Shown here one piece after another: positions 15,076 to 16,807 of a DNA stretch of 64,000 nt; the first letter of the stretch is position 1, and each line of letters starts with the position of its first letter. The notes below the pieces were generated by a model. The model made no database searches, was not told the origin of the DNA, and was given only the letters and a program-made list of their open reading frames with translations. Source of the DNA: Candidatus Aenigmatarchaeota archaeon. Lineage in GTDB: Archaea; Aenigmatarchaeota; Aenigmatarchaeia; QMZP01; QMZT01. The DNA lies in NCBI GenBank assembly GCA_026397315.1, contig JAPLVC010000003.1:32001-96000 (forward strand), written 5' to 3'. The position numbers were made by a program, and so were the translations under genes.

Positions 15076-15147
15076 GGGCTGGTGGTCTAGTGGCATGACG
15101 TCGCCTTCACACGGCGAAGATCAAGGGTTCAATTCCCTTCCGGCCCA
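15076..15147 (+). tRNA. tRNA-Val(CAC)
   Basis: Full cloverleaf; TCGCC-TT CAC AC-GGCGA; AAGGG-TTCAATT-CCCTT. Confidence 0.96.
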
Positions 15148-15192: not shown

Positions 15193-15265
15193 GGGTCCAT
15201 GGTCTAGTGGCTATGACGTCTGCTTGACGTGCAGAAGATCGCTGGTTCGAGTCCGGCTGGACCCA
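15193..15265 (+). tRNA. tRNA-Val(GAC)
   Basis: Full cloverleaf; TCTGC-TT GAC GT-GCAGA; GCTGG-TTCGAGT-CCGGC. Confidence 0.96.
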
Positions 15266-15351: not shown

Positions 15352-15484
15352 GCCCCGGTAGTCTAGTGGCCAAGGATACCGGCCTTTCGGGTGCTTTTCG
15401 AAGTCTCGAAAGGTAAGAGCTCCGCAGCGAGCGATGACTTCACGAAGAAAGCCGGTGACCCGGGTTCAAATCCCGGCCGGGGCA
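15352..15484 (+). tRNA. tRNA-Glu(TTC) with 60-nt canonical intron (15390-15449)
   Basis: GCCCCGG/CCGGGGC acceptor; CCGGC-CT TTC G^..^A-GCCGG; BHB with central CTTT/GAAG, bulges CG^G and AA^A, outer GTG/CAC. Confidence 0.95.
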
Positions 15485-16546: not shown

Positions 16547-16586
16547 GCAAAAAATGGCGCCATATAAAAAATCACTCGAAACAATC

Positions 16587-16743
16587 GCGGGGGTACCCAA
16601 GCGGTCAAAGGGGCTAGAATACCTAAGTTCGCTTCGACTGGTATGGCCAAGTTTAGGTATGGCTAAGTTCAGGCATTGGCTGCAAGGCCGTTGAAATGCC
16701 TAGTGCTTTAGTAGCTTCCAGGGTTCGAATCCCTGCTCCCGCA
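16587..16743 (+). tRNA. tRNA-Leu with introns at 30/31 and 37/38 and two alternative anticodon mini-exons (TAG, 16651-16657; CAG, 16667-16673)
   Basis: GCGGGGG/CTCCCGC+A73; CTAG..G/CCTAG anticodon stem; variable arm GCT/AGC; CAGGG-TTCGAAT-CCCTG; BHB motifs for both routes. Confidence 0.92.
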
Positions 16744-16807
16744 TAACTTTTTCTTTTGTTGTCCGGTCTTTTCCAGATTTATTAATAAACCGGGACATAA
16801 TCTAAAT

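Follow-up and report, generated by a model that had tools for sequence, protein, structure and literature searches.

A tRNA-Leu gene with tandem UAG and CAG anticodon cassettes in Aenigmatarchaeota: a candidate for alternative splicing in cis

Results

Organisation of the gene

The window analysed here is a stretch of 64,000 nt from a Candidatus Aenigmatarchaeota genome (G000; assembly of 1.05 Mb in 7 contigs, estimated to be 91% complete), which lies on contig C5 and starts at C5:32001. Window positions 16587–16743, read from the sequence, hold a 157-nt class II tRNA-Leu gene on the + strand, in which the 7-bp acceptor stem, the D arm and four anticodon-stem bases are followed by an 80-nt interior and then by the anticodon-stem 3' strand, a long variable arm, the T arm and discriminator A; the gene does not include the 3'-terminal CCA. 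A putative TATA-like A/T-rich box (16563–16571, + strand) lies about 20 nt 5' of the mature end and a T-rich tract, a likely transcription terminator (16748–16757, + strand), follows immediately 3' of the gene. Since no other promoter-like element was seen, we take the gene to be a single transcription unit. We considered the class of split and tri-split tRNAs for this locus and rejected it, because the separate loci and separate transcription of that class were not found: all pieces are contiguous within 157 bases, flanked by a single A/T box on the 5' side and a single T tract on the 3' side, and contiguity was seen in 39 sequences.

The interior of the gene contains two tandem 16-mers (16640–16655 and 16656–16671) that agree at 14 of 16 positions, which bears out the duplication described in an earlier note on this DNA. 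Among 33 candidate tRNA regions scanned in the genome, this gene alone has an internal direct repeat of at least 11 nt. As the note had also proposed, reading of the sequence gives two candidate mini-exons for tRNA positions 31–37, the heptamers 16651–16657 (TAG) and 16667–16673 (CAG), whose sole difference is wobble base 34, U in the first and C in the second.

The remaining features, all on the + strand, can be arranged around these heptamers. The common 5' exon (16587–16617; positions 1–30, comprising the acceptor 5' strand, the D arm and anticodon-stem bases 1–4) was delimited from sequence, an exon scan and in-silico splicing, and shows no variation in its aligned part (columns 1–8 of alignments A1 and A2). 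It ends in the donor of intron 1 (16612–16618), which consists of a 4-nt central-helix strand (16612–16615) and a 3-nt bulge (16616–16618), with the cut predicted after 16617, that is, at position 30/31. The adjacent switch strand (16619–16627) can pair with either of two partners, namely site 1 (16640–16644) in what we call fold A and site 2 (16652–16660) in fold B, where it buries cassette 1. Acceptor module 1 (16640–16651) is composed of site 1, a central-helix strand (16645–16648) and a bulge (16649–16651), with a predicted cut after 16650, and leads into cassette 1 (16651–16657, anticodon UAG, invariant in 39 of 39 sequences). A 9-nt spacer (16658–16666), recognised from sequence and alignment, would open intron 2 of the UAG route and carries acceptor module 2, whose central-helix strand (16661–16664) and bulge (16665–16667, reaching one base beyond the spacer) predict a cut after 16666, directly in front of cassette 2 (16667–16673, anticodon CAG, likewise invariant in 39 of 39). 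In the CAG route, intron 2 (16674–16697) would occupy the canonical position 37/38 and consists of a hairpin (16675–16691), a shared central-helix strand (16692–16695) and the first two bases of the bulge 16696–16698, with the acceptor cut predicted after 16697. The donor cuts of intron 2 are predicted after 16657 for the UAG route and after 16673 for the CAG route, which makes the introns 33 and 40 nt long in the former and 49 and 24 nt in the latter. The common 3' exon (16698–16743; positions 38–73, with the anticodon-stem 3' strand, the long variable arm, the T arm, the acceptor 3' strand and discriminator A) was again derived from sequence, scan and in-silico splicing. All four proposed BHBs show 3-4-3 geometry, and every helix and bulge that the earlier note had listed was recovered at its coordinates, including the placement of G16693, in the shared strand 16692–16695, opposite either U34 or C34. 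A third cassette was considered for the site 1 region, which resembles the cassettes, and was rejected; the similarity arises because both must complement the same switch strand.

In-silico splicing along either route yields an 84-nt tRNA, called tRNA-Leu(tag) or tRNA-Leu(cag) by ARAGORN, and after removal of the intervening sequences both predicted products are canonical cloverleaf tRNAs. A 100-nt product in which both heptamers and the spacer are retained is not recognised by ARAGORN. The gene itself is reported neither by ARAGORN nor by the Rfam tRNA model at default settings, and with one intron allowed ARAGORN wrongly returns a tRNA-Thr(agt) with an 81-nt intron; the two introns are the reason why these programs miss or misread it.

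Leucine tRNA genes and codon use

Most tRNA genes of the genome are interrupted. A scan for T arms and acceptor stems found four Leu-type genes, AAG on contig C3, UAA on C6, CAA on C7 and the present gene. No uninterrupted NAG anticodon arm was found in tRNA context in this genome, and a fuzzy search with the Leu 5' and 3' exons gave no fifth Leu locus. In the 22 family relatives, every other BLAST match to the Leu exons that was fetched proved to be AAG, UAA or CAA, and an uninterrupted CAG or UAG arm in Leu context occurred in 0 of 22 genomes, so that no separate Leu(UAG) or Leu(CAG) gene, whose absence the earlier note had named as a point in favour, was found in this genome or in the 22 relatives; the present genome and most relatives are 77–95% complete. 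Two family members depart from the pattern, G007, which has both anticodons in another layout, and G018 (77% complete), where no such gene was found. Apart from this gene, no source of UAG and CAG leucine tRNAs is detectable in the family, and it is the only candidate source of a CUA/CUG decoder besides a possible I34 tRNA. Among the leucine codons of the genome CUG is the commonest (31.5%) and CUA the rarest (4.7%).

Outside the family, stand-alone genes do occur. Sister family f6 has an uninterrupted CAG arm in 11 of 14 genomes and an uninterrupted UAG arm in 4 of 14, its other UAG genes having an intron at 30/31; over the whole order, an uninterrupted UAG arm is present in 14 of 91 genomes. 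The anticodon arm of the predicted CAG product is letter-identical to that of stand-alone CAG genes of sister families. For the predicted UAG product, the 7-nt loop is present in the stand-alone UAG gene of G048, and the full anticodon arm (the 21-mer with T) was found as an ordinary gene in 0 of 371 genomes of the phylum. The spliced UAG arm was not found in JGI contigs either, a result that is uninformative in both directions because tRNAs rarely assemble.

Every genome of the family has a tRNA-Leu whose anticodon is AAG (A34) in place of the GAG that is usual in archaea (in this genome at C3:50143–50282, − strand; in relatives including L054, L059, L083, L085, L088 and L090), while two relatives of family f5 (G032 and G056) have GAG, not AAG. 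To our knowledge, A34 tRNAs are regarded as absent from archaea. Outside the window, a 163-aa deaminase ORF (C5:771–1262, + strand) has the tRNA adenosine(34) deaminase TadA as its best NCBIfam match, at 72.9 bits and below the family cut-off of 150. Together, the TadA-like ORF and Leu(AAG) hint at inosine-34 in a DPANN archaeon, and if Leu(AAG) is deaminated to I34, neither the UAG nor the CAG product is strictly required. A second deaminase, on C3, resembles dCMP deaminase.

Conservation across relatives and metagenomes

Orthologs were collected from 60 relatives with the full 157-nt gene as BLAST query, so that invariance of the cassettes is not a result of picking sequences by their cassettes. 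Orthologs were found in 20 of the 22 other family genomes, in 9 genera, giving 21 distinct sequences from species representatives. Both heptamers and the shared exons are invariant in all 21 sequences, counts that overstate independent support since the related genomes are kin, while the intron 1 loop, most of intron 2 and extra introns in the D and T loops and the variable arm vary between genera. Invariant columns amount to 14 of 14 in the cassettes against 15 of 57 in the alignable intron (Fisher p = 3e-7), and the columns of the intron 1 loop are 38% identical on average.

The exact double-cassette pattern was found in 20 GTDB species records, all of them Aenigmatarchaeota, and no other species matched among the 185,579 scanned. 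In a scan of JGI metagenomes, both wobble bases were left free; the 24 contig matches in tRNA context nevertheless all had U first and C second, and the other wobble combinations all lay outside any tRNA. Eighteen of these 24 matches were new and were combined with the 21 species to an alignment of 39 sequences, in which both cassettes are unchanged throughout. Within the same study, a second sample yielded a contig that spans 16609–16762 without a difference. Recurrence of the layout in 21 species, in GTDB records and in 24 JGI contigs shows that it is neither chance nor an assembly merge, and it contradicts the merging of two paralogues that the earlier note had put forward as a way in which its proposal could fail. 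We conclude that the gene is real and functional as well as conserved.

Pairing, covariation and fold energies

The two routes were written as two structures on the alignments and the pairs were counted, with partners slid by 1–3 columns as a control. In the UAG route (fold A and the UAG donor of intron 2) 91.6% of cells are paired, compared with 32–47% after sliding, and in the CAG route (fold B and the CAG donor) 95.0% compared with 18–46%. The central helices of the four BHBs are 88–99% paired across the 39 sequences, and the shared donor of intron 1 is paired with either acceptor in 99% of cells in the alignment. Pairing reaches 97.9% in the fold A helix and 97.4% in the fold B helix, and each helix has compensatory changes specific to its fold, of the kind that the earlier note had suggested looking for in related genomes. 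Covariation is limited here because one strand must fit two partners, one of which is an exon.

Pair 13–35 of fold A (alignment A2) is C–G in 24, U–G in 10 and U–A in 5 sequences. In fold B, column 13 pairs instead with G37 of cassette 1, a base without variation, so that the counts there are C–G in 24 and U–G in 15. The appearance of U–A in 5 sequences while G37 stays fixed indicates that fold A is under selection. The complementary case is found in L036, where two A–U to G–C changes, involving the switch strand and the three bases 3' of cassette 1, are compensatory in fold B only and turn the fold A partners of the changed bases into G–U; these fold-B-only changes point to selection on fold B as well. 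Among the donors of intron 2, the CAG hairpin directly 3' of cassette 2 covaries strongly, with pair 70–127 (A2) showing six pair types and 19 double changes. Of all elements, the UAG donor's long-range inner helix is the weakest; it is 78.6% paired and has little covariation of its own. Opposite position 34 stands a G in 27 of 39 sequences, able to pair with U34 and C34, and in the other 12 an A, which can pair with U34 but not with C34. Cassette 2 retains C34 in every one of these 12 sequences, so that this base is not preserved for pairing. The alignments hence contain two competing structures, each conserved individually and each predicted to select one cassette.

For the fold energies, the central helices and bulges were forced and the remainder was folded; these values describe a fragment without the tRNA body or kinetics and are descriptive. 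On this basis no more than 1 kcal/mol separates the two productive states in 13 of 21 species, and in this genome fold A with the UAG donor (−19.8 kcal/mol) and fold B with the CAG donor (−19.3 kcal/mol) are nearly isoenergetic, in line with the alternative folding suggested in the earlier note. A mixed state, which combines acceptor 1 and the CAG donor, has lower stability than either productive state in 17 of 21 species; in this genome it is only 1–1.5 kcal/mol worse. A mixed splice would yield a dead-end RNA of 100 nt, and one may speculate that a second, relaxed cut could rescue it to the CAG form.

Processing enzymes and RNA data

EndA is a single protein of 395 aa, encoded on contig C1 (34559–35746, − strand), of which residues 6–395 align with PDB 4FZ2 (E = 3e-104), the three-unit epsilon2 enzyme of ARMAN-2. 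For the epsilon2 type of endonuclease, cleavage at non-canonical positions has been demonstrated with both strict and relaxed BHB motifs (PMC3239211). An RtcB ligase is encoded as well (521 bits), and by homology the genome has an epsilon2-type splicing endonuclease of broad specificity together with RtcB. Metatranscriptome X20, a single run, returned the 5' exon of a relative alone, on 16586–16615, which is uninformative on this gene.

Other layouts with two anticodons in the order

Further one-gene, two-anticodon layouts occur in the order, other families included. One of them has positions 20–37 in two copies, of which the first, in line, contains UAG and the second CAG (L093 in G007, L149 in G025, L145 in G040, L134 in G052 and L058 in G058). 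The BHB scan predicts the same 30/31 splice for this layout, with the exon GGCU strand pairing with its own copy; our permissive scanner gave many chance motifs on the relatives, and only hits yielding a correct tRNA were kept. As the GGCU strand is nearly self-complementary, its duplication at once creates a cleavable central helix, which would provide a simple origin of the acceptor modules. G023 holds a hybrid of the mini-exon cassettes and the duplicated 20–37 layout. In another layout the UAG loop is in line and the canonical intron holds a CAG mini-exon with A37 and an acceptor of its own, which forms a perfect 4-bp helix with the exon and a 5-bp hairpin burying the UAG loop (L123 in G028, L053 in G031, L056 in G042 and L142 in G046). 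Finally, L144 (G029) is a 341-nt Leu gene with UAG and CAG mini-exon cassettes, both with A37 and 20 nt apart, the same 6-nt acceptor before each cassette and additional introns that interrupt the variable arm and the T loop. A stand-alone CAG or UAG arm was found in none of the genomes with two-anticodon layouts; these genomes are kin, so their counts are not independent events, and several distinct layouts are involved.

Sister families have separate Leu(UAG) and Leu(CAG) genes, often adjacent and sometimes in tandem (L060 in G049, L116 in G047, L143 in G044, L150 in G048 and L152 in G054). Separate adjacent genes are a plausible ancestral state, from which fusion could have proceeded by deletion or unequal recombination.

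Discussion

On the comparative data, which support the idea well, we consider it probable that this one gene gives rise to two leucine isoacceptors by alternative BHB splicing in cis. In the mechanism we propose, a single transcript would comprise the shared 5' exon (positions 1–30), the tandem cassettes (31–37, UAG then CAG) and the shared 3' exon (38–73). Intron 1 would have one donor and two acceptors, between which the 9-nt switch strand just 3' of the donor would choose, pairing in fold A with the site upstream of cassette 1 and in fold B with cassette 1 itself plus three bases. Each fold would set a GGCY strand opposite the exon GGCU, leading to a 3-4-3 BHB with the 3' cut before cassette 1 or before cassette 2, respectively. 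Intron 2 would have two donors, one 3' of each cassette, and one acceptor at 37/38. Since fold B uses cassette 1 as a helix strand, the UAG donor would be excluded and the CAG donor alone would be available, while fold A followed by use of the UAG donor would lead to the UAG tRNA; the epsilon2-type endonuclease would perform the cuts and RtcB the joining. We infer that both routes run in cells, and our guess is that CAG is the major and UAG the minor product, because the gene body equals that of stand-alone CAG genes and CUG is used far more often than CUA.

Among the alternatives, the one that best withstands the data, and which we nonetheless hold to be unlikely, is an ordinary two-intron Leu(CAG) gene, in which the apparent UAG cassette is the 3' strand of the fold B helix, a relic of the duplication that is never joined, and in which CUA would be read by an inosine-modified tRNA-Leu(AAG). 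The latter assumption draws on the existence of the TadA-like ORF and of Leu(AAG) genes, although sister families retain a UAG gene beside their AAG and CAG genes. The reading would also account for the identity of gene body and CAG arm with stand-alone CAG genes, for the fact that the UAG arm has never been seen as an ordinary gene, and for the pairing and covariation of fold B and the CAG-route hairpin, which are the best of all elements. Cassette 1, however, is fixed while its fold B partner varies, leaving U opposite G37 in 15 of 39 sequences without compensation in any of them. Acceptor module 1 and the fold A helix would be mere loop under this reading, yet they are 98–99% paired, with C–G to U–A changes specific to fold A, and as fold A would compete with the productive fold, its upkeep is left unexplained.

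U34 can read both CUA and CUG, and many small genomes manage without C34 isoacceptors. A gene producing Leu(UAG) only, with cassette 2 always removed in a second intron of 40 nt, would accordingly serve both codons by wobble, and in 12 of 39 sequences the shared acceptor strand fits U34 perfectly and mismatches C34. We regard this as improbable nevertheless: cassette 2 and its acceptor would then be unpaired intron, yet the cassette is invariant; the hairpin 3' of cassette 2 covaries strongly although it would compete with the UAG-route helix; L036 shows compensation specific to fold B; the CAG product matches genuine CAG genes found in sister families; and CUG is the commonest leucine codon. 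That the locus is an assembly merge of two paralogues or a decaying pseudogene is scarcely credible, for although the genome is metagenome-assembled and standard tRNA finders fail on the gene, the same layout is present in 21 independently assembled species and 24 metagenome contigs, the contig from another sample covers the gene with zero differences, exons, cassettes and splice modules are invariant, and the gene is the only candidate source of a CUA/CUG decoder besides a possible I34 tRNA.

Returning to two products from one gene, we found no example in cis of two tRNAs made from one gene in the literature searched (full text), and neither a 2026 review of non-canonical splicing nor an Asgard tRNA-intron preprint mentions one. 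Among published cases the nearest is the tri-split tRNA-Gly of Caldivirga maquilingensis, where isoacceptors are put together from separate pieces joined in trans via leader complementarity (Fujishima et al. 2009, as outlined in PMC4390854). There, constitutive 5' and 3' parts and alternative short anticodon-loop pieces are combined into synonymous isoacceptors through BHB-type motifs cut by the splicing endonuclease; the layout of the present gene and its conservation fit such a scheme, and its parts would be combined likewise. In Caldivirga, the pieces stem from separate genes and transcripts, whereas here one 157-nt gene holds them all and the choice would be made by alternative folding in cis.

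In Nanoarchaeum equitans, the split tRNA-Glu(UUC) and tRNA-Glu(CUC) share a 3' half. The likeness to the present gene lies in U34 and C34 isoacceptors sharing sequence, which saves space in a reduced DPANN genome, and the difference in that N. equitans joins separate half-genes in trans, without intron cassettes. Both tRNA-Glu species are among the split tRNAs listed in PMC4390854. With the multiple-intron tRNA genes of Thermoproteales and of Ca. Micrarchaeum ARMAN-2 (PMC3239211, PMC4090602), the gene has in common introns at 30/31 and 37/38, BHBs of 3-4-3 or relaxed type and a broad-specificity endonuclease. Those genes make one product each, while here acceptor and mini-exon are duplicated and, unlike in the known cases, two BHBs would compete for one donor and two donors for one acceptor.

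A further parallel, as analogy only, is offered by eukaryotic gene expression. In Dscam pre-mRNA, several selector sites are open to one docking strand, and the site with which it pairs determines the cassette that is kept. The mutually exclusive choice by competing RNA pairings would be alike in both systems, although Dscam involves the spliceosome, a eukaryote and an mRNA, and the present gene a protein endonuclease with a ligase, an archaeon and a tRNA.

We lean slightly towards a broader interpretation, in which Aenigmatarchaeota routinely encode two Leu isoacceptors per gene, chosen by a two-state fold of the pre-tRNA, with at least four or five layouts across the families of the order; this would be the first alternative cis-splicing by the protein-only machinery of archaea, and the balance of the folds would set the ratio of UAG to CAG. 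As the two folds are nearly isoenergetic in most species, temperature, ions or folding during transcription could tune this balance. If both products are made, the rule of one gene for one tRNA would be broken for cis-encoded tRNAs, and mutually exclusive cassette splicing would have evolved in archaea with just a BHB endonuclease and RtcB. Intact, multi-intron and split or tri-split tRNA genes would be linked in one evolutionary series, visible within a single order, one family of which keeps its UAG and CAG genes apart while others have fused layouts. The system is small, with 157 nt, one enzyme and one ligase. It also bears on annotation, since standard tRNA finders miss or misname such genes and DPANN genomes consequently appear to be without CUA/CUG decoders.

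In the family relatives from other genera (L036–L052), as many as three additional introns interrupt the ortholog, in the D loop, the variable arm and the T loop (at about 58/59), with gene lengths of up to about 330 nt, which would mean five introns per tRNA gene. Another interrupted tRNA lies close by at window positions 15352–15484; it scores 54 bits with Rfam and is miscalled by ARAGORN as a stop-codon (tta) tRNA. By eye it resembles a tRNA-Glu(UUC) with a long insert 3' of the anticodon loop, and it adjoins two intronless tRNA-Val genes (15076–15147 and 15193–15265).
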